A stretch of DNA of 20,000 bases. It comes from an uncultured virus (IMG/VR IMGVR_UViG_3300024268_000045). Lineage: Duplodnaviria; Heunggongvirae; Uroviricota; Caudoviricetes. This document shows, one piece after another, positions 1-19,225 of this stretch. The translations under genes were made by a program, and so were the position numbers. The first letter of the stretch is position 1; each line of letters begins with the position of its first letter. Below the pieces are notes generated by a model. That model did no database searches. It was not told where the DNA came from and saw nothing but the letters and a program-made list of their open reading frames with translations. Where the stretch lies: IMG/VR virus record IMGVR_UViG_3300024268_000045; one strand, written 5' to 3'.

Positions 1-2298
1 GACCGTCAAGGTGTTGATTGGAAATCACAAACATTATTAGCAGAAACAACAGAAGAAAGAACAGTTATTCTTATATGTGTTAAAGATAACGAAAGAGAGA
101 CAGGAATGGTTGGCTTTTTCGGTGGCGAAATTGTTGAACTTGGAGAAGATGTTGAAAGTCACTATCAAGTTTCTTTAACTTCAACAGGTTCTCGTCTTAT
201 AAAAGGCGCAACAACAAATAAAAAGAAAGCCAAACCTTGCTTTGTAAAATATAATGGAGATTACTATTACGGACTCCATTTTAAGGAATCTAGCCCTGCA
301 AAAATTTATCACGCAGGTTGGTCAAATATCCCAGGCCCTCTTGCAGCGCCTTCATACACGACTTACACAGATGGAGATTTCTCAGAAATCGTCGACCTCG
401 ACGATGATTCTGAGACAGGGACGGAAGTAATTGAATTAAGTTGGGCAGACATTGAAAGCTACAACTGGGAATTCATAGGTGAACTTACAAGCAGACAAAC
501 TGTAAACTTTAGAAACAACTATAATGCAGTTGGCTCAGGCAATAACCGATACTATTCTCTTGCTTCAAACATTCGCTTATATCCTGTAAACAGAAGCGGC
601 TCAAATGCATCAACAGTTGAACTTCACCCAGGGCGGGGCTCAATTACAGTTGAAGGACGCGATGTAACAAATGTTCGATTTGCTATCACTGATGATGTTG
701 GCTATGTTACATTAAGACTTAAGAACTGGGGAGGTATGAACAACATTCCTCGTCAGGGTGCAAATATGGTTATCTTTCATGATAATGGCACAGGAAATGC
801 TCCTAACACTGCTCAGCAATTAGAAAGCCATTACTTCCCTTATGCAGCTACAGGCACTGATGGGTATATCTCTGACTTTACTTTCGGACCACTTCCAAGA
901 GGAACCTATTGGATAAGACAGGGCTCAGGTAATTATAACACAAAGGTTGAATACTACATTCTTCAAACAGAAGCATACTCAGGTGAAGATGACATAGTAA
1001 CGGCAGGCGACCATTATGATTATGATTTCAAGCACGGTTTGAAAATCAAAACACATAATGACATTCACTGGGAAACAAGTCGTAATGGCAACAGTGGCGT
1101 TATTATTTGTGATGCACCTACAAACGAAGTTGACTCAGAAGGCCTTTTACAGGTTGAGGTTTTAGGTCCTTGTAGATTTACAGTTGGATTTTCTAAACTA
1201 CCTGATGATGAAGCGCCTACTACAACATTACTTATATCTGAAACTCTTGAAGCTGGGGATGAAGCTTGGCAAAGAGCAGTTCAAGGATATTCACGAAATG
1301 ATGCAGCAATCACTGATGTTACTTATGAGTATTCTGGAAAGTGGGGTAAAAAGCAAACTCTTTATGTTGCAACTGACCGTCCTGCTGCCATATATTATGC
1401 TGCAATTGAATACCCATCATTCTCAGGTGGTGCAATTATTGCAGATATTATTCGTGGCCTTGATGAAACAGGAGAGGACGGCTCACCTCATATTATCAGA
1501 CCTTCAGGCGTTATTGATAAAGCATCTTTAATGACAATTGCAGGCGTATGTCTTAATTCTGAAAAACAGTTGGTAATTGACTTAAGTAACTGTACTGCTG
1601 CCACAGACGCGCAGGATTGGTCAGGTGATGATGATTTGTCAAAACTATTCCAAGGTGCTTCTTCAGTAAATAAGTTTATTTATCCTAAAGGAACTTTGAC
1701 TGCAGGTAATGCGCCGTTCTTGAACTGTTCATTCTTAAGAGATATTGAATTTAATGATGAAATGTATCAGCTCGGTTACTCTACGTGGGTTAACAGAAAC
1801 CAAGGATTCTTCTCAGGTGCTCGTATTAAAGAAGTATGGCTTCCAAAGCAATTAGGTCAGAGAACAGGTGTTCACGCTTGGGGCGGATACTTTATGGCGC
1901 AGAACAACGTTATTGGGTTATACATCAGACCTGATTCTTATTATGCTCAGAATAATATAAGCATAGCTAACATATTTACAAATCAAGATTGGTATAACAC
2001 AGCGCATCAATTCTGGTCAACTTGGAACTACTCTCGTGGCGACTTCAAAATATATCTTCCTTGTAAACGTATTGGGTCACCTGAAGATAATAATTGGGAA
2101 ACAGGAAATCAATGGCTTTATAATCGTTGGATGAACCAAGTAGGAAATACAACTTTTGCATCAGTAATGAACGAGTATTTGTCAAGCGTTACAAAAAATG
2201 TTCCTTCTTTGGAAAGAACAGACCTTGTAAGAGACCACTTGGTTCCTTATGATGTAAATGAAATGTGGTATGAGCCAAGATGTTTGGATCTTGTGTAA
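1..2298 (+). CDS. Large putative virion/adhesin protein with C-terminal BspA/TpLRR-like leucine-rich repeats (5' truncated by window edge)
   Basis: Frame is open from base 1 (DRQGVDWK...) into the ATG at 106, so the gene starts upstream. The N-part is beta-rich and G/S/T/N/Y-rich. The C-part has LRR_5-like strings (LVIDLSNCT, LFQGASSVNKFIYPKG, PFLNCSFLRDIEF, FFSGARIKEVWLPK). Ends TAA just before the capsid gene. Confidence 0.55.
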   Translation, partial: DRQGVDWKSQTLLAETTEERTVILICVKDNERETGMVGFFGGEIVELGEDVESHYQVSLTSTGSRLIKGATTNKKKAKPCFVKYNGDYYYGLHFKESSPAKIYHAGWSNIPGPLAAPSYTTYTDGDFSEIVDLDDDSETGTEVIELSWADIESYNWEFIGELTSRQTVNFRNNYNAVGSGNNRYYSLASNIRLYPVNRSGSNASTVELHPGRGSITVEGRDVTNVRFAITDDVGYVTLRLKNWGGMNNIPRQGANMVIFHDNGTGNAPNTAQQLESHYFPYAATGTDGYISDFTFGPLPRGTYWIRQGSGNYNTKVEYYILQTEAYSGEDDIVTAGDHYDYDFKHGLKIKTHNDIHWETSRNGNSGVIICDAPTNEVDSEGLLQVEVLGPCRFTVGFSKLPDDEAPTTTLLISETLEAGDEAWQRAVQGYSRNDAAITDVTYEYSGKWGKKQTLYVATDRPAAIYYAAIEYPSFSGGAIIADIIRGLDETGEDGSPHIIRPSGVIDKASLMTIAGVCLNSEKQLVIDLSNCTAATDAQDWSGDDDLSKLFQGASSVNKFIYPKGTLTAGNAPFLNCSFLRDIEFNDEMYQLGYSTWVNRNQGFFSGARIKEVWLPKQLGQRTGVHAWGGYFMAQNNVIGLYIRPDSYYAQNNISIANIFTNQDWYNTAHQFWSTWNYSRGDFKIYLPCKRIGSPEDNNWETGNQWLYNRWMNQVGNTTFASVMNEYLSSVTKNVPSLERTDLVRDHLVPYDVNEMWYEPRCLDLV

Positions 2299-2338: not shown

Positions 2339-2486
2339 CTAAAACAATTTGTGTAGTGCTTAATATATGCAGATAAGCGGGAATTATATACCGCAAAAAG
2401 TAGGGTTTTATATATCTAAATATATCGTTCAAGTACACCACATTCTTGTTTTAATTTTCAACAATAAAATAAGGAAAGGTGAAAAA

Positions 2487-4118
2487 ATGAGTGCAACATC
2501 AGTAATTGCAGGTCAGAAAGACGCTGCAGCATTGCGTGAGGCAACAAGAAAAACTCTCGCAAAAACAGAAAGAGAATTCCGTGGAGCTAAGTTCGTAGAA
2601 TCTTGGTCTCGTATCCCTAAAATCGGTGCAGGTTTGAATAAGCTTCCTGAAGCAGTAGCTCGTAACACAGCTATCAACCTTCAGACACAGGCTGCTTCAA
2701 TGGCAAAAATGACAGAAGCACAGCTTTCAACTTCATTCCAAGGTTTCACACCTGAGAATATGTTGAGACTTGTTCGTTTAGCAATGCCTAACACTTGCCG
2801 TAACAAGGTATTCACAGAGTTCGCTATGGAGTCAGCAAAGGACTCTATCAAATACATCAAACCTGTTTATTCAAAGACAGTTGATGGTAGTGATCTTCAC
2901 GACAAGCACACTGCTAACAAAGAAGGTGCTTATCAGGATGCATCAAAGTATAAAGATGTTTACAATGACATCAACGAAGACGATTTCCAGAGAGCTCTCT
3001 ATGAGAACACTGAAGACCGCTTCACTCAGGAGCTTGTAAACATTCAGGGTACAGATGGAGTGTTCACAATCCCTGCAACTCCTGCTGCTGATGCAAATCC
3101 TTTTGTTAAAGCATCAAAGCTCATCCCAGGTTATATGAAAGTATACGTTGGTGATGAAACACATCCAGTTGCTGAAGAGAACAAAAGAACAGGAAACTTC
3201 TTCGTAAACACAGACGACTATCCTAACGCAAAAGTAACAAAGACTGTAGACGACGAAACTGGTGATATCACAATCAAAGTTGAAGGCGTTGAAGGCGACG
3301 TTAAAGTATTTGCACGTTTCGATATGGAAGACGACTTCCTCGGAACAAACCTTGGTGAGATTGAACTCGTAATGAGCGACTACAAGTTTGAACCACGTCC
3401 AACAACAATTGGTGTTACTTGGTCACAGCTTGCTGAAATCACTCTTGACGCTTCATTCGGTCTTTCAGCTCAGGATATGTTGGTACAGTATGCAGGTGAT
3501 GCAATCCGTATCAATCTCGACCTCCGTTCATTCAAGCTTGCTTACGGTGTAGCTCGTTCAAACAAGGACTATATCGTTGAGTTCGATGCTGCTTATGGTA
3601 ACGGTGAAAACATCGAAGGTTACTTCCACACAGCTCAGACATTCCCATCTGCAGTTGATACAGTAACTGACGTTATGGTAAACGACATCAACCGTGGTGG
3701 CGTTTCAAGAATGGTTGCAGGTTTCTCTGCAGGTTCTTACCTCAAACTCGTTAAGGGTACATTCTCTGACAAAGGCCGTCAGGCTGCAAAGGGTATTTAC
3801 CAGATTGGTGAGTTCGGTGGAATCCCAACATTCAAGGCTCCTTCAAGCATTATCCCAACAAATGAGATTATGTGTGTATGGAAGGACGACGAAAACGAAG
3901 GCGACGTTGCAATCGCATTCGGTACATTGGTTCCATTCTTCAACACTGGTATCATCCAGAGAAAGAACTTCTATAAAGAAGCTGGTCTTGCAACATATGG
4001 TGACTGGGCAGTACTTAACAGACGTTATCTCGCTCTTATCCGTATCAAGGGATTGAAGGATACAACAGACGGCCGCGTAGGTGGTATGTTGAAATATTCA
4101 CAGGGTCCAAAGGACTAA
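2487..4118 (+). CDS. Major capsid protein, T4 gp23-like (543 aa)
   Basis: SD-like AAGGAAAGGTG precedes ATG 2487, so the track start at 2367 is likely too early. MLRLVRLAMPN...FAM...IKYIKPVY and EIELVMSDYKFEPRPTTIGVTWSQLAEITLDASFGLSAQDML...IRINLD match gp23 core motifs. Codon bias is that of a highly expressed gene (CGT, ATC, TTC, AAC). Followed by hairpins. Confidence 0.9.
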   Translation: MSATSVIAGQKDAAALREATRKTLAKTEREFRGAKFVESWSRIPKIGAGLNKLPEAVARNTAINLQTQAASMAKMTEAQLSTSFQGFTPENMLRLVRLAMPNTCRNKVFTEFAMESAKDSIKYIKPVYSKTVDGSDLHDKHTANKEGAYQDASKYKDVYNDINEDDFQRALYENTEDRFTQELVNIQGTDGVFTIPATPAADANPFVKASKLIPGYMKVYVGDETHPVAEENKRTGNFFVNTDDYPNAKVTKTVDDETGDITIKVEGVEGDVKVFARFDMEDDFLGTNLGEIELVMSDYKFEPRPTTIGVTWSQLAEITLDASFGLSAQDMLVQYAGDAIRINLDLRSFKLAYGVARSNKDYIVEFDAAYGNGENIEGYFHTAQTFPSAVDTVTDVMVNDINRGGVSRMVAGFSAGSYLKLVKGTFSDKGRQAAKGIYQIGEFGGIPTFKAPSSIIPTNEIMCVWKDDENEGDVAIAFGTLVPFFNTGIIQRKNFYKEAGLATYGDWAVLNRRYLALIRIKGLKDTTDGRVGGMLKYSQGPKD

Positions 4119-13699: not shown

Positions 13700-14377
13700 T
13701 TACTCTCCCATTACTTTTTCGTATTCGTCATAATCATCTGAATCCAACCAAGACTCAAATCCGTCATCAGGAGCTTTACCGTTTTCATCTCTCTGTTCGA
13801 TTTTGATAAAAGCACCGCCCATTCCGAGAGTTTGTTCAACAACTTCAAGTCCCATCCCTGGAGCTGCAGTATCAAGGAACTGCTGAAGCTTGTTTACGAA
13901 ATCAATAAAGTTTATTTGTGCGCTCTTGAACTTACCTTCTTTTAACAACTTTTTGCTTTCTGATATTCTTTCCATTGTTTTAAGATTTTCAAAAAGAAAG
14001 CCCTGTCCTGCAGAAAGGTCCTCAAGTTTTTTAAGTTCTGCATCGTCAATGTAAACTCTGTCTTCCATCTCAGATACATCTGAAGCCATTTCAAACAAAC
14101 CTTTGATAGCTTGTTTCAAATCACCGCCCATATTCATCTCACCAATCTCGTCTTCATATTGCTGAGAAACATAAAAGCAAACTTTACCAGCCGCGTCTGG
14201 GTCTTCATAGCCCGTTGCAGTAATGCCAACATTGAAGCCTGCACCACAATAAACAGTTATAGCAACTTCTTCGTGAACTGGGTCATCAGATGTTTTTGCT
14301 TTTGCTCTATATGCTGCTCTAAGAAGGTCAGCCACTTTTGAATATGGAAGACCCTCTTCATTTTCAGTCATTTTCAT
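13700..14377 (-). CDS. Hypothetical acidic protein (225 aa), possible head protein
   Basis: ATGA overlap with the ligase-fragment gene, SD AGGAG; motifs MTEN, LFEN, ISES, LKEG. Confidence 0.7.
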   Translation of the reverse strand: MKMTENEEGLPYSKVADLLRAAYRAKAKTSDDPVHEEVAITVYCGAGFNVGITATGYEDPDAAGKVCFYVSQQYEDEIGEMNMGGDLKQAIKGLFEMASDVSEMEDRVYIDDAELKKLEDLSAGQGFLFENLKTMERISESKKLLKEGKFKSAQINFIDFVNKLQQFLDTAAPGMGLEVVEQTLGMGGAFIKIEQRDENGKAPDDGFESWLDSDDYDEYEKVMGE

Positions 14378-15210
14378 AAATATCTCCTATTGATATTTAG
14401 TAACATTTCAAGGAATGCTTCAGGAGATATAATTGCTGTACCGAGTTTCTTTGCTTTTTCTGATTTTGCTGAGGTTGAGTCTGGGTCAGCCTGAACAAGA
14501 TATGTAAGTGTTTTATTTATTGAGGAAACAGTTCCGCCGTTATCAACAACCATTTTTTCAAGGTCAGCTCGTTTGTAAGCCATTGCGCCTGTGAAGCAGA
14601 AACTCATTCCTGCAAGAACGCCACCTGCAACCTTTTCTTCTTCACCGATATTGCAAAGTTTTGATACTTCAAGCAGATCTTTTTTGATTTCTGACAAAGC
14701 CTGCAAAACTTTAATGCCTGACTCCAAAGTCCAACCTTTGATATTTGATATGTCACGAGGATTTGCTTTTTCAAAGAAACTTTCGATTGTGTTGTAACCT
14801 GCGTCAACTAAAGACTGCAAACGCTTTTCGCCGAAGTCTTCAATATCGAAAGCAGAGATAAAGTTGGCAAGTGTTCTTTTCTTTGACATTGCTGCCTTAA
14901 GATTTTTACGGATTTTTTCGGCATTCTTGCCTGCGATTTTATCAAGAACTGGGCTGTCGATTTCACGAAGGAATTGTGCAAGGGATTTGATATTTGCTTC
15001 TTTTACAAAGTCTTCAACAACTCGTGGACCAATTTCAAGAACATTCCACTTATTTGACATCTTTATGATTGCGTGTTCAATCTTCTTTGCGCAGGAATCG
15101 TTTGGGCAAAAAACTTCTCCACTGTCATTGATTTCAAGTTCTGTGCCGCAGCAAGGGCAGACAGTAGGCATTCCCCAATTGTATTTTTTAGCAAGTTCTG
15201 ATGCTTTCAT
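14374..15210 (-). CDS. C-terminal half of NAD-dependent DNA ligase (Zn finger, HhH repeats, BRCT); no adenylation or OB domain
   Basis: PTVCPCCGT...VFCPNDSC zinc finger, IGPRVV / FGEKRL / IKGW HhH motifs, LAGMSFCFTG...GGTVSS...TYLV...KSEKAKKLGTAII BRCT. Has its own SD AAGGAG and promoter. Confidence 0.85.
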   Translation of the reverse strand: MKASELAKKYNWGMPTVCPCCGTELEINDSGEVFCPNDSCAKKIEHAIIKMSNKWNVLEIGPRVVEDFVKEANIKSLAQFLREIDSPVLDKIAGKNAEKIRKNLKAAMSKKRTLANFISAFDIEDFGEKRLQSLVDAGYNTIESFFEKANPRDISNIKGWTLESGIKVLQALSEIKKDLLEVSKLCNIGEEEKVAGGVLAGMSFCFTGAMAYKRADLEKMVVDNGGTVSSINKTLTYLVQADPDSTSAKSEKAKKLGTAIISPEAFLEMLLNINRRYL

Positions 15211-15226
15211 ATTAACTCCTTACAAA

Positions 15227-15258
15227 AATAATATAAAGAAGTTATTCAGGAAGTTTAA
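15227..15258 (-). promoter_or_regulatory. sigma70-like (early) promoter TTAAAC-N17-TATATT, copy 2
   Basis: Shares a 16-nt and an 8-nt exact block with 4700-4731 at identical spacing. Confidence 0.65.
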
Positions 15259-15661
15259 TTGAAGACCAATTTTCTAACAACTTTTTTGCTTCTTTTTTAG
15301 AGTATTTTGGCTTTATATAGACAATTGAGTCTTTTTGTGTTTCCATTGAAAATTCAGAAAATATGCGATTTCTTATAGGAACACCTGGGCCTTTTTGAAC
15401 ATTCTTTTCAGACTCTTCAACATCCTTTTTATCGAAAAATGTTGGAAAGCGGTCAATAATTGTTTCAATTGCTTCTTCAGTAAGTTCAGCTTTTTGAGTG
15501 CCGTCTTCTCCAAAAACATATTGTTTTATTACTTCTTCTGGGTCGTTTTTGAAATCAATACTGCCGCTGAAAGGCATTTGAAGACGAACGAGTCTTAACA
15601 TATTCTCAGGAGTAAACTAATTGAATGACGATGCCAATTCTTCTTCTGTTTTATTTTTCAA
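15242..15661 (-). CDS. Major-capsid-fragment paralog 1 (in-frame TAG at 15617-15619; intact 119-aa ORF from 15601)
   Basis: SD AGGGAGG + 8 nt + TTG at 15661 gives MKNKTEEELASSFN*FTPENMLRLVRLQMP, matching capsid MAKMTEAQLSTSFQGFTPENMLRLVRLAMP. Later RNRIFSEFSMETQKDSIVYIKPKYSK matches RNKVFTEFAMESAKDSIKYIKPVYSK. Confidence 0.8.
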
Positions 15662-15695
15662 AGCAGCTGCCTCCCTTTCAAATATAGACCGTGCG

Positions 15696-15860
15696 TCAAA
15701 TCTCCTCAACAACTTCGTACCAATCCTTTCTTTTTGAGGTTTCAGCGTCTTTGTCAAATCCTGTCAAAGCCAACATTTGTTTATGAGCTGAGTCTTCTGT
15801 TGGCCAAGATTCATAATAAGTTCTTTCACCTGATTTTGTTACGTGATAAATATTAAACAT
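15696..15860 (-). CDS. Small hypothetical protein (54 aa), absent from ORF track
   Basis: MFNIYHVTKSGERTYYESWPTEDSAHKQMLALTGFDKDAETSKRKDWYEVVEEI*; TAATG overlap with the upstream stop; fills the gap. Confidence 0.65.
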   Translation of the reverse strand: MFNIYHVTKSGERTYYESWPTEDSAHKQMLALTGFDKDAETSKRKDWYEVVEEI

Positions 15861-16509
15861 TACTTCTTACCTCTCTTCTTTGGTTTAGTAAATTGTATTT
15901 TTTGAAGGTACAACTGATCTGATGGCGGAGCCATAGGTTTTTCTTTGAACAATTTACTTACTCTTTTATCAGAGTCGTGGTCAGCAAGTTCCAAGTCCTG
16001 TTCATCAAAGAATGTTGGGTACTTATCCAAAATCTTTTCAATTGTTTCTTCAGTAAGCTCGGCTTTATTACCGTCTCCAAAAACGATTTCTCTCAACTCT
16101 TCATAAGTATAATCGTCAAGGTTGATATTTTCTAATGAACCACCTAATATCGCTGATGGGAATATTGGTCGAACCTGAAGCTGTGATATAGGGTCAGCTA
16201 AAGTAATAGCATTCCCGTTATTGCCAATAACGCCTGTTGTTACGACAGGAGCAAGTTTGCCATACACTACTTGCGGCGCATCATCATCTTTATTTTCATA
16301 AACAGTAAGCAAGGAGCCGTCAGGCATCTGAACTTTTTTCTCAAGTTTTTTGTTGCTTTTACAAGTTTATCTGCTTCTTTTTTAAGTCTCTTATTTTCTT
16401 TCTCTTGTTCTTTTGTAACGTCGCTGCACCAATTACTGAACATATTCCATATTGAATGAGCTTCATCATCTTTCATCTCTAAAGAGATACTACCTTTAGG
16501 TCCTAGCAT
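15860..16509 (-). CDS. Major-capsid-fragment paralog 2, split into two ORFs (16267-16509 and 15860-16327) joined by a -1 shift
   Basis: Shares VFG.G..KAELTEE.IE.I.D..PTFFD with paralog 1. SKLFKEKPMAPPSDQLYLQKIQFTK aligns ungapped to capsid NKVFTEFAMESAKDSIKYIKPVYSK. In-frame A_AAA_AAC and A_AAA_AAG lie at 16333-16351. Confidence 0.6.
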
Positions 16510-16523
16510 ATAATGATATTAAC

Positions 16524-16547
16524 AAAAAAGGCAGGCTTCGGCCTGCC
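16524..16547 (-). terminator. Intrinsic terminator after flaA
   Basis: GGCAGGC-N4-GCCTGCC hairpin followed by T6 on the minus strand. Confidence 0.8.
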
Positions 16548-16570: not shown

Positions 16571-17383
16571 TTATTTTGCATCTCCTGAAGAATCCATTTT
16601 TTCTTTTTCTCTTTCAATCAGTGCAGCTTTAAGTTTGATTGCTTCTTTTTCTCTTTCTTCAACCTTTGTCTTATCACCTGACTTCAAATTGAAAGTTTCA
16701 TCTGTTGACTTAATAATCTCAAGTTCCTGTTCAGTATAAGCAAGATCATAAATAACCTTTACATTACTTATGTAAACAACTGAAACATCATAACCTGTGA
16801 TAGGGATTGTTCTTATGCGAATTGCTCTAATATAAAGTTCATTTGTTGCCTTTCCACCATAAGCTGGGTAATTCAAAACATCTCTTTTATTAGGGTCATC
16901 AACATATTCAAGGTTATCCCATTCAAGAACAACTTCACCAATAGTCTGCAAGTCGCCTTTGAATTTATATTCTTTACCTACTGGGTCATTTGGGTCAGTT
17001 GCTAAAAATATTGATACTTCATCATTTCTGTTTATGCCATTAACTGTAATACCAAGTTTCTTTAATGTGCCAACATTTGTCAAGTAGCCAAACTCTTTAT
17101 CAGCTTCAGTTATAATAGGATTGTATGGCGGCACAATGTCATAATACACATAACGATTTTCAGGAATGTTCTGAACACAAACAGCAAGTTTGCCATCAAC
17201 AATCTTAATCTGATAAGGAACTCCCTTAAGAGATGACATTGGACGAACTTCCCAATTTTCATAGGAATAACCATCAACTGCGTTTTCGATAAAAGTACTT
17301 GCATTAAGGAAAGTCTTTTCCTCAGCAAATGTTGTAAAACAAATTGCGAATAGCATTGCAAATATCGCAAACAACTTCTTCAT
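16571..17383 (-). CDS. flaA: Spirochete flagellar filament sheath (outer layer) protein FlaA-like, with Sec signal peptide (270 aa)
   Basis: Signal peptide MKKLFAIFAMLFAICFTTFA. IVPPY, GYLTNVGTLKKLGITVNG, LEWDNLEYVDDPNKRD..YPAY and YISNVKVIYDLA correspond to conserved Treponema FlaA blocks (NVGTIK, W.NP.Y...R.R...YP.Y, YFKDVKIIYDKA). Directly downstream of flaB; SD GAGGAG. Confidence 0.8.
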   Translation of the reverse strand: MKKLFAIFAMLFAICFTTFAEEKTFLNASTFIENAVDGYSYENWEVRPMSSLKGVPYQIKIVDGKLAVCVQNIPENRYVYYDIVPPYNPIITEADKEFGYLTNVGTLKKLGITVNGINRNDEVSIFLATDPNDPVGKEYKFKGDLQTIGEVVLEWDNLEYVDDPNKRDVLNYPAYGGKATNELYIRAIRIRTIPITGYDVSVVYISNVKVIYDLAYTEQELEIIKSTDETFNLKSGDKTKVEEREKEAIKLKAALIEREKEKMDSSGDAK

Positions 17384-17485: not shown

Positions 17486-18343
17486 TTACTGTAAAAGCTG
17501 CAATACATTCTGTGACTGACTGTTTGCTTGCGCAAGCATTGCTGTTGAAGCCTGCTGAAGAATTGAATTCTTTGTGTAATCAACCATTTCTTTTGCCATA
17601 TCAGCGTCGCGAATAATGCTTTCTGATGAAGTCATATTCTCTGCTGCAACGTTGATACCTTTTGCTGCCATCTCCATTCTGTTCTGAACAGCACCAAGGT
17701 CGGCTCTCTGTCTGTTTACATTCTTCAACGCTTCGTCGATTGTTGCAAGTGTACGGTTTGCTGTTTCAGTATCTGAAACTGATACAAGAGCTCCGTCTTC
17801 ACCATCCTGCCCTTTTCCGCGAAGTCCCAAAGATTCAGCAGTTGCAGATGCAATGTTAATCTTGATGTTCTGGTCAACATTTGCGCCAACTTGGAAAGTG
17901 ATTGAGTTGTCAGTTTCTTTTGCGAAACGACCTGTCAACATATTGTAGCCATTGAACTGAGCAGTAGATGCGATACGGTCAACTTCAGCAACAAGCTGTG
18001 AAACTTCTACCTGAATTTGCATTCTGTCTTCATCGCTGTAAACACCATTTGATGCCTGAACAGCAAGTTCACGGATACGCTGCAAGATGTCTGTTGTTTC
18101 CTGAAGATAGCCAGAAGTAACTTGTATGAAACTTATAGCATTTTCAGTATTTTTGCTTGCTTGATTAAGACCTCTGATTTGAGCTCTCAATTTTTCACTT
18201 ATTGCAAGACCAGCTGCATCGTCACTTGCTTTATTTATGCGTTGACCTGAAGATAATTTTTCAATAGAACTTTGAACTTCCTTTGCATTTATTCTCTCCA
18301 TACGAGAGGCGAACATTGAACTAAGATTGTGATTGATAACCAT
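17486..18343 (-). CDS. flaB: Flagellin, spirochete FlaB core type (285 aa)
   Basis: [103 protein letters not shown]. Short variable region typical of spirochete FlaB; SD AAGGAG. Confidence 0.97.
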
Positions 18344-18364: not shown

Positions 18365-19225
18365 TCACTTCCGTGTTTTGTATGGCTTACAAAGTTTACC
18401 TGCAACAAAGCCAGATGGACATTCATAACAGAAAATGTTCTCTTTTCCATTATTGAACCAATGTTTTCCTTTTCCAAACTTTAAGCGAGCTTCATTTGCT
18501 TTCTTCTTAGTCTCTTCGTTGATAGGCTTTTGAAGTTTGCCTTTTTTGAAGCCTTCAGGACACTCAAAATCAAGAATATTTTCTTCACCATTATTGAACC
18601 AATGTTTTCCTCTATGAATATCTGCAAGCCTCTTAATTTGATTTTTGCATTTATCACTGTTCTTCATAGAAGTTTTTATATGCTCAATATGTTCGTCTGT
18701 TTTTTTATGTCCTTTCAAAGATTTAGAAATATTATCATTCCAAGATTCTGTTCTTTCCACTGAGCTTAATTTCTTTGACATATTTTCTTTATATTCTTTA
18801 AGTGTTTGTTCATCCATTTCTCGTATAGCAGAACGACCATACATAGGATTCCCAGAACCAGAATATATTTTTGAAAAATGTTTCTTAACCTCGTCTGAAC
18901 ATATATGACCTTTATTGAGTTCTGATGATGCTTGTCCTACCAAAACTCTCAATCGTTCATATTCCCTACTTGAAACTTTATGCTTACCTGAATGTGATAG
19001 CCTCCATAAAGCAAATATCATTCCTTTTGTAGGATAAATCTTTACCAAAAGCTGGTGGCAAAAATAATGTTCTCTTGCAGTTAAGAGCACTTGATTAGAA
19101 AGTCTATCTTTCCAAAGAGGGAATATTGACTTTGGAAGTATATGATGCTTCTCATAATAAGCACCATTCTTCTTTTCTCTTAATCCCAACTTTTGCTCAT
19201 TCAAAGCTTTTGTAATAATTATCAT
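18365..19225 (-). CDS. Free-standing HNH homing endonuclease with NUMOD3-type and repeated C-terminal DNA-binding modules
   Basis: YYEKHHILPKS...NQVLLTAREHYFCHQLL HNH core; KGHICSDEVKK, GSGNPMYG and KGHKKTDEH NUMOD3-like motifs; two GKHWFNNG..N....ECP.GF..GKL repeats. Confidence 0.9.
   Translation of the reverse strand: MIIITKALNEQKLGLREKKNGAYYEKHHILPKSIFPLWKDRLSNQVLLTAREHYFCHQLLVKIYPTKGMIFALWRLSHSGKHKVSSREYERLRVLVGQASSELNKGHICSDEVKKHFSKIYSGSGNPMYGRSAIREMDEQTLKEYKENMSKKLSSVERTESWNDNISKSLKGHKKTDEHIEHIKTSMKNSDKCKNQIKRLADIHRGKHWFNNGEENILDFECPEGFKKGKLQKPINEETKKKANEARLKFGKGKHWFNNGKENIFCYECPSGFVAGKLCKPYKTRK
18447..18611. repeat. 24-nt direct repeat inside the endonuclease gene (domain duplication)
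   Basis: CCATTATTGAACCAATGTTTTCCT at 18447-18470 and 18588-18611. Confidence 0.9.

Follow-up and report, generated by a model that had tools for sequence, protein, structure and literature searches.

The window analysed here, a 20,000-nucleotide stretch (bases 18792-38791) of the 53,426-bp IMG/VR viral record IMGVR_UViG_3300024268_000045 assigned to the Caudoviricetes, contains two neighbouring minus-strand genes, hereafter paralog 1 and paralog 2, whose predicted products combine short copies of the best-conserved regions of the phage's own major capsid protein (MCP), a divergent relative of T4 gp23, with a common domain of about 60 amino acids (aa). Tentatively, we read these small proteins as mimics that, while the head is assembled, would compete for a partner to which the N-arm and hairpin of the MCP bind, a reading to which we give somewhat less than an even chance. 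The record has a completeness of 18% (CheckV), and related contigs span 188-306 kb, which makes the virus a jumbo phage of roughly 300 kb. Its G+C content is 36%, most open reading frames (ORFs) of the window lack a family match in scans of Pfam, PHROGs and NCBIfam, and tblastn searches of GenBank phages with paralog 1 and with the capsid protein gave no match.

Capsid pieces in two small proteins

The genes and segments involved are the following.

2487..4118 (+): MCP, divergent T4 gp23 type, 543 aa (profile, hhalign and ESM Atlas matches)
2655-2789, 2796-2879 and 3849-3959 (+): MCP donor blocks, residues 57-101, 104-131 and 455-491, respectively
15242..15601 (-): paralog 1, the 119-aa ORF left after an in-frame TAG (BLASTP and profile comparison to the MCP)
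15572-15601 (-): paralog 1 residues 1-10, copy of the capsid N-arm
15377-15571 (-): paralog 1 residues 11-75, shared domain ('insert')
15296-15376 (-): paralog 1 residues 76-102, copy of the first strand into the capsid insertion domain, then a Lys-rich tail
15620..15712 (-): upstream remainder of the paralog-1 frame, matching capsid ~57-86 including the counterpart of the maturation-site Glu (profile alignment)
15860..16327 (-): paralog 2, the 155-aa ORF downstream of a frameshift (BLASTP and profiles)
16223-16327 (-): paralog 2 residues 1-35, copy of the capsid C-terminal hairpin (capsid 455-491)
paralog 2 residues ~68-124 and ~124-153 (-): shared domain and degenerate capsid 106-134 copy, respectively, with a basic tail at the end
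16267..16509 (-): 80-aa ORF, the Lys/Glu-rich coiled-coil N-terminal part of paralog 2

The donor protein is encoded by the ORF 2367-4118, whose start is most likely the second Met (2487) because relatives start there. By itself, the window MCP matched no Pfam family even at E 10, and its one PHROG match is to a group of unknown function. A scan of 1.84 billion representatives yielded 236 relatives, and an 83-sequence alignment of such relatives (A4, the deep capsid profile) connects the family to gp23: 25 of the 83 members match PF07068 (Gp23; best E 3.8e-12), and among Protein Data Bank chains the A4 profile retrieves 'Gp23' 9ukm_A (E 2.2e-19) and T4 gp23 6uzc_a (E 1.1e-3). Consistent with this assignment, hhalign pairs the capsid family with T4 gp23 over 388 columns (96.2%, E 2.5e-9), and the ESM Atlas features of the MCP reach 0.97 to Gp23 clusters. 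AlphaFold2 with a 7-row alignment gave a mean pLDDT of 36, with residues 180-280 alone confident. Judged by homology, from which its fold is predicted, the protein is a T4 gp23-type MCP.

The hhalign alignment places T4 L63-T64-E65, the gp23 maturation cut, on capsid M75-T76-E77, with E77 near-invariant in A4, and further aligns T4 91-135 with capsid 87-131 and T4 430-467 with capsid 457-495. Within the blocks copied by the small proteins, the positions near-invariant in the capsid family are E77, P89, F109, D119, D473 and G479, and all of them are retained in the small proteins. As a separate observation on the MCP, its beta-rich insertion domain (3027-3320, +; capsid residues ~181-278) is the only part that AlphaFold2 predicts confidently and also the only strongly variable part among seven related capsid proteins, the remainder being almost invariant, which suggests a surface-exposed domain under diversifying pressure.

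Both small ORFs named in the first-pass annotation, 15242-15601 (-) and 15860-16327 (-), are indeed present. In BLASTP comparison of paralog 1 with the capsid ORF, residues 1-10 match positions 132-141 of that ORF (9/10 identical) and residues 76-102 match positions 144-170 (18/27 identical, E 3e-10), the two blocks being collinear with the MCP. The proposal that paralog 1 consists of capsid pieces split by an insert of about 63 aa was borne out by comparison of family profiles, which aligned it with capsid 61-132 over 72 columns interrupted by one 63-residue gap (99.1%, E 7.5e-19); against the deep capsid profile the match is similarly strong (98.8%, E 8.5e-17). The motif 'FTPEN' assigned to paralog 1 in the same annotation lies instead upstream of the ATG, directly after the in-frame TAG (15617-15619) and outside the 119-aa ORF. 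The copied capsid stretch aligns with T4 gp23 'VRRAIPNLIAFDICGVQPM' in both profile and hhalign comparisons, as had been claimed.

At the nucleotide level, the identity to capsid 2751-2777 noted earlier is exact: 25/27 nt, both changes being synonymous. Within this stretch, 6 of the 8 degenerate third positions match, for which we estimate a chance of ~0.05. We considered recent gene conversion as its source and rejected it, the stretch being a local peak within blocks that overall share only 58/81 (block A) and 44/81 nt (block B). In block B, where 18/27 residues are identical, the third base differs in nearly every shared codon and synonymous sites are saturated; therefore, the duplication must be old and the likeness maintained at the protein level.

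Relatives of paralog 1 form 30 clusters that are 74-93% identical; 27 of these are 134-166 aa long and the remaining three 129, 111 and 110 aa. They extend upstream across the counterpart of the capsid maturation site. In the window, candidate starts for such a longer product are TTG 15659-15661, with GGGAGG 7 nt upstream, and the TTG-TTG at 15707-15712. In the 13 codons outside the overlap with the neighbouring ORF, the window and the related locus L006 differ at 8 nucleotides, 6 of them third positions (chance ~0.02, our own estimate), a pattern which suggests that the paralog-1 frame upstream of the usual start is translated. A search for larger or fused forms among 763 candidates of 245-2000 aa related to P0004 returned none at E <=0.01, and no capsid protein carrying the insert was found among them, which is weak evidence. 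We also inspected short capsid matches as possible further mimic genes, 10 among the 150 relatives listed, and set them aside; they look like contig-end fragments or chimeras.

For paralog 2, the capsid-derived piece that stands out is a different one. Residues 1-35 match capsid 455-491 by BLASTP (E 0.005), with the profile from the shallow capsid alignment (E 2.9e-4) and with that from the deep alignment (89%, E 2.3e-6). The first-pass annotation had described paralog 2 as a diverged copy of the same capsid region as paralog 1. The C-terminal part of that description stands, if weakly (capsid 106-134; E 0.017, suboptimal alignment), and the N-arm part lacks support from profiles: no profile comparison recovers the pairing of 'LQVRPIFP' with the N-arm, which depends solely on a MAFFT column with an invariant Pro. 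Paralog-2 relatives fall into 35 clusters, of which 33 are 181-221 aa long and start with a Lys/Glu-rich coiled coil of ~60 aa; in these 33, the coiled-coil part is joined in frame to the remainder of the protein.

The middle domain and the block that follows it are common to the two proteins (BLASTP 39% over 80 aa, E 3e-13; profiles 98%, E 7.8e-14), in agreement with the earlier claim of a shared insert. The paralogy between the two genes is ancient. The domain, ~60 aa long and predicted helical, is the best-conserved part of both proteins, and none of the families in Pfam, PHROGs or NCBIfam matches it. Its hidden Markov model (HMM) matched the two genes only among the 831 six-frame ORFs of the 53-kb record, and again the two genes only, besides weak capsid matches, in four related records; the notion of a widespread tag was accordingly dropped. 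Derivation of the insert from the capsid spine-helix region was likewise rejected (E 0.24, not collinear). Altogether, 72-74 capsid columns are aligned in paralog 1 and 36 in paralog 2, out of 543, and the rest of the capsid protein has no counterpart. With so small a fraction of the capsid, and without the spine helix and A domain, neither protein could form an HK97 shell subunit, as the first-pass annotation had already stated.

Selection, lesions and genomic context

The insert-containing family is conserved, and neutral decay is not seen at the family level. Pairwise Nei-Gojobori estimates of dN/dS (5 loci, all pairs with dS >0.3) are 0.17-0.28 for paralog 1 and 0.28-0.41 for paralog 2; by this measure, both families are under purifying selection. 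In the lineage of the window, each gene carries a lesion.

15617..15619 (-): in-frame TAG where intact relatives have Gln or Gly (alignment; also in L004 and L005)
16345..16351 (-): 1-nt deletion relative to L006, L019 and L020; A6 run, A_AAA_AAC in the upstream frame (alignment)

The deletion splits paralog 2 into the 80-aa and 155-aa ORFs. Both lesions are real alleles rather than assembly errors because they are present also in L004 and L005, which come from other samples. Recoding of the TAG as Gln was rejected: TAG is an ordinary terminator that ends 8 of the 85 ORFs of >=100 aa, recoding it would bring the summed ORF length from 20557 aa to no more than 22328 aa, and neither the 53-kb record nor a related 188-kb contig (65% complete) yielded a tRNA gene. 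A programmed -1 frameshift was rejected as well: the A_AAA_AAC heptamer arises from the deletion itself, L006, L019 and L020 are in frame, and the signal is not conserved. Slippage by -1 on this heptamer could nevertheless rescue paralog 2 at a low level. Going by the sequence, the lineage is expected to yield at most products that lack their N-terminal parts and begin at the ATGs of positions 15601 and 16327, and the copies in the window may be partly disabled.

These lesions raise the alternative that the two genes are decaying remnants without a present function in this lineage, the family being functional elsewhere, which we regard as quite unlikely. The unrecoded stop codon and the frame-splitting deletion, common to three contigs, argue for decay, and so does the only paralog-1 difference that sets L005 apart from the window: it changes a Pro conserved in at least 90% of the family. 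Against it, the frames remain intact past the lesions, an ATG follows within 5 codons in paralog 1 and within 9 codons in paralog 2, and only the N-terminal 20-60 residues are taken away; moreover, a -1 shift on the heptamer would restore the frame of paralog 2. In addition, RNA-library contigs from three ruminant-gut studies cover 14801-16165 in ~90%-identical relatives. These contigs are compatible with expression, weakly so, since DNA can occur in such libraries and the contigs carry no transcript ends, strand or level. RNA runs gave 5-10% of words in every run, and a search for sigma-70-type promoters was uninformative (10 found vs 8.7 expected).

The gene order flagellin, FlaA-like, paralog 2, 54-aa ORF, paralog 1, ligase-like gene is identical in L006, L019 and L020. 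Two further features belong to this cluster.

15696..15860 (-): conserved 54-aa ORF between the paralogs, no family match, present in all related loci
16530..16547 (-): terminator-like hairpin and T-run after the FlaA-like gene, the small-gene cluster beginning just downstream

The 54-aa ORF is conserved nearly letter for letter in all related loci, and at its 3' end it overlaps the upstream part of the open paralog-1 frame. On the minus strand, no terminator-like site was found between the small-gene cluster and the ligase-like gene. This arrangement makes it probable that the small genes are part of a non-structural transcription unit, which may be an early or middle one.

Candidate roles of the small proteins

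The hypothesis of mimicry in head assembly draws on what is described for T4. According to the available text of PMC9546572, gp23 residues up to 105 are disordered in the unexpanded head, where they lie inside, probably on the scaffolding core, and L106 is the first ordered residue; after expansion, the region becomes the external N-arm and N-fist, which are engaged in contacts inside a capsomer as well as from one capsomer to the next and build the Soc site together with the insertion-domain linkers. The same text places the head-length mutations A66D, A94V and G97S in the gp23 N-terminal region and describes how, upon head expansion at the portal vertex, Met98 of the arm takes the place of Met444 of the neighbouring subunit. 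When the small proteins are mapped onto gp23 through hhalign, the insert of paralog 1 falls at the T4 104-106 hinge, exactly between its two capsid blocks, of which the first corresponds to the arm, including the positions of A94, G97 and M98, and the second to the first linker strand. In paralog 2, the part taken from the capsid corresponds to the hairpin in which the M444 position lies. With Met98 in the paralog-1 block and Met444 in the paralog-2 block, the paralogs would therefore display the two elements that occupy one T4 contact in turn.

Being too small for shell subunits, the proteins would act as molecular mimics of the arm or hairpin, and the copies would dock where the native elements dock; for this docking, the P-domain of an adjacent shell subunit, the scaffolding core and the portal are candidates. 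Such docking might tune or cap the assembly of the head of a roughly 300-kb phage. The reading draws further on the capsid homology, the retained near-invariant residues, the age and selection of the copies and the conserved gene order set out above and, as a weak lead, on the scaffold-like language-model features given below. Complex prediction of capsid 78-543 (83-row alignment) with the paralog-1 family scored 0.00 in two runs and speaks neither way.

Several observations weigh against a role in head assembly. The predicted fold of the paralog-1 family is all helical and uncertain (mean pLDDT 62, pTM 0.29). In Pfam, PHROGs and NCBIfam, neither protein has a match among the families of scaffold, decoration or core proteins. 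The small genes head a minus-strand run into the ligase-like and helicase genes, outside any head-gene cluster, a position less in keeping with late structural genes than with early or middle ones. Finally, both genes are damaged in three contigs of the lineage, and the function must therefore be dispensable at least in part.

A different involvement in the head would have the small proteins serve as prohead-core or internal head proteins, directed into the prohead, beside the scaffold, by their capsid-like N-terminus and trimmed or degraded there by the prohead protease in the manner of T4 gp67 and gp68; we consider this unlikely. The paralog-1 family does align from capsid ~57 across an 'x-T-E' that matches T4 L-T-E65, the gp23 cleavage site, and the available text of PMC9026906 and PMC9958956 gives L/I-x-E as the cut rule of the prohead protease, states that T4 gp23 loses 65 residues and describes the small core proteins gp67 and gp68. 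However, in the window type the residue three before the counterpart of the cut is Lys, not Leu, Ile or Met. The basic tail of paralog 2 would suit a core protein, and so would the language-model features of the paralog-1 family, for which the nearest neighbours are unnamed viral clusters and phage scaffolding families (PF06810 and PF14265, 0.91 and 0.87, with low feature overlap, hence a weak lead only). No protease or scaffold gene adjoins the small genes, and there is no similarity to T4 gp67 or gp68 (E 0.6-9); specifically, a relation to these proteins was rejected on hhalign comparison of the small-protein alignment with gp68 (E 0.67) and gp67 (E 0.61).

The copied stretch also has a bearing on host defence. 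The earlier annotation identified it as the counterpart of the T4 Gol region, and profile matches and hhalign confirm this: capsid 92-114, of which paralog 1 holds a copy, is paired with T4 'VMGMVRRAIPNLIAFDICGVQPM'. We take the Gol peptide to be T4 gp23 residues 93-122. The available text of PMC3014915 speaks of a '29-residue region' and presents the Gol region as the most conserved part of gp23, which binds EF-Tu. The small proteins might accordingly be immune decoys: produced ahead of the shell protein, they would offer its best-conserved epitope, which is the Gol-equivalent stretch or, in paralog 2, the C-terminal hairpin, to a host sensor for gp23-type capsid proteins and occupy that sensor without triggering it, a scenario that we find doubtful. 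As sensors, a Lit-like protease with EF-Tu or a CapRel- or Avs-like protein could be considered. The placement of the genes with replication genes rather than head genes, and the retention of the capsid likeness by selection at the protein level, would suit a decoy, and the insert that splits the epitope could part binding from activation. Yet the same insert of 63 residues, which follows 'MP' in mid-core, halves the Gol-equivalent core, so that the contiguous 20-29-residue core is not kept and no contiguous epitope is presented; both genes are shortened in this lineage; and no host sensor is known. A search of the literature for capsid-fragment mimics or decoys, with subscription journals not covered, found nothing relevant, and in the available text of bioRxiv 10.64898/2026.01.04.697583 'decoy' refers to mass-spectrometry databases only. 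The broader idea, that giant T4-type phages repeatedly evolve carriers displaying conserved, immune-visible shell epitopes and thereby blind sensors ahead of the shell protein, which would amount to counter-defence through self-mimicry of a structural protein, appears to us similarly doubtful.

The copied blocks are invariant in all seven related capsid proteins that we compared, and a mimic would thus act on all of them. This would fit a weapon against competing phages, in which the mimics poison the head assembly of co-infecting relatives and the phage's own assembly is spared by timing or stoichiometry; early expression, as suggested by the gene neighbourhood, would also fit. But the phage's own shell protein offers the identical target and no mechanism of self-protection is visible; nor did the literature search reveal a precedent, and we hold such a role to be very unlikely.

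Relation to known systems and neighbouring genes

With respect to T4 gp23, the small proteins copy the counterparts of residues ~63-103, ~104-135 and ~430-463 (by alignment) and keep the family-conserved residues, but with their 120-220 aa they stand alone and lack the spine helix, A domain and insertion domain, and an unrelated domain either interrupts their copied blocks or is fused to them. We know of no such small capsid-piece genes in T4 itself. The paralog-1 stretch has its positional homologue in the Gol peptide of the Gol/EF-Tu/Lit exclusion system (Escherichia coli prophage e14); Gol, however, acts within gp23 and triggers defence, whereas here the stretch is split by 63 aa and resides in a separate protein. 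T4 gp67 and gp68 resemble the small proteins in size and in their charged helical character, and there might be a link to the scaffold-facing N-terminus of the shell protein; they differ in genome position and contain no significant capsid copy. Incidentally, T4 gp67 and gp23 51-78, around the maturation cleavage site, share 11/28 identical residues, a non-significant match (E 0.6). The T4 vertex protein gp24 and the size redirectors of satellites likewise derive from or act on the MCP and alter the shell, but gp24 is a complete HK97-fold paralog, unlike the short shell fragments seen here. Size redirectors such as P4 Sid are not capsid-derived.

The free-standing combination of capsid pieces with a helical domain would seem to be a categorically new kind of design, though the alleles in the window are damaged. 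The gp23 stretch that is copied refolds in head expansion, carries head-length mutations and touches scaffold and portal; as Gol, it serves in addition as the classic trigger of a suicide defence of the host. A free-standing copy of it maintained by selection, together with a sister protein that bears the hairpin with which it trades places in T4, offers a natural probe of the partners of these capsid elements. If the small proteins are assembly regulators, they would bear on how head size is set in jumbo phages; as decoys, they would represent the first case of a counter-defence assembled from parts of the sensed protein itself.

Upstream of the small-gene cluster, the minus strand carries a FlaA-like gene (16571-17383; flagellar filament outer-layer protein, PF04620, E 3.4e-10) and a complete flagellin gene (17486-18343; Flagellin_N E 1.7e-42, Flagellin_C E 8.8e-26). 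A terminator-like hairpin follows each of them, and both are kept in L004, L006, L019 and L020. FlaA is a spirochaete-type protein, and the FlaA-like gene may be a sign of a spirochaete host living in the ruminant gut and of an influence of the phage on motility; a literature search on rumen jumbo phages with flagellin found nothing relevant. Adjoining the flagellin gene is a free-standing homing endonuclease (18365-19225, -; phrog_655, E 8.7e-35; NUMOD3 motif). On the other side of the cluster, 14374-15210 (-) encodes a stand-alone 278-aa protein whose match to NAD-dependent DNA ligase is confined to the C-terminal part (positions 385-653 of 656 in phrog_3869), with BRCT and HhH; the ORF lacks the adenylation domain and may represent a split ligase or an accessory protein. 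In the near-identical 188-kb contig (G001), positions 14026-14406 (-) of L032 hold a candidate tmRNA gene, called by ARAGORN only, with the tag peptide ATKRSVFARKSNSVFARIAA.

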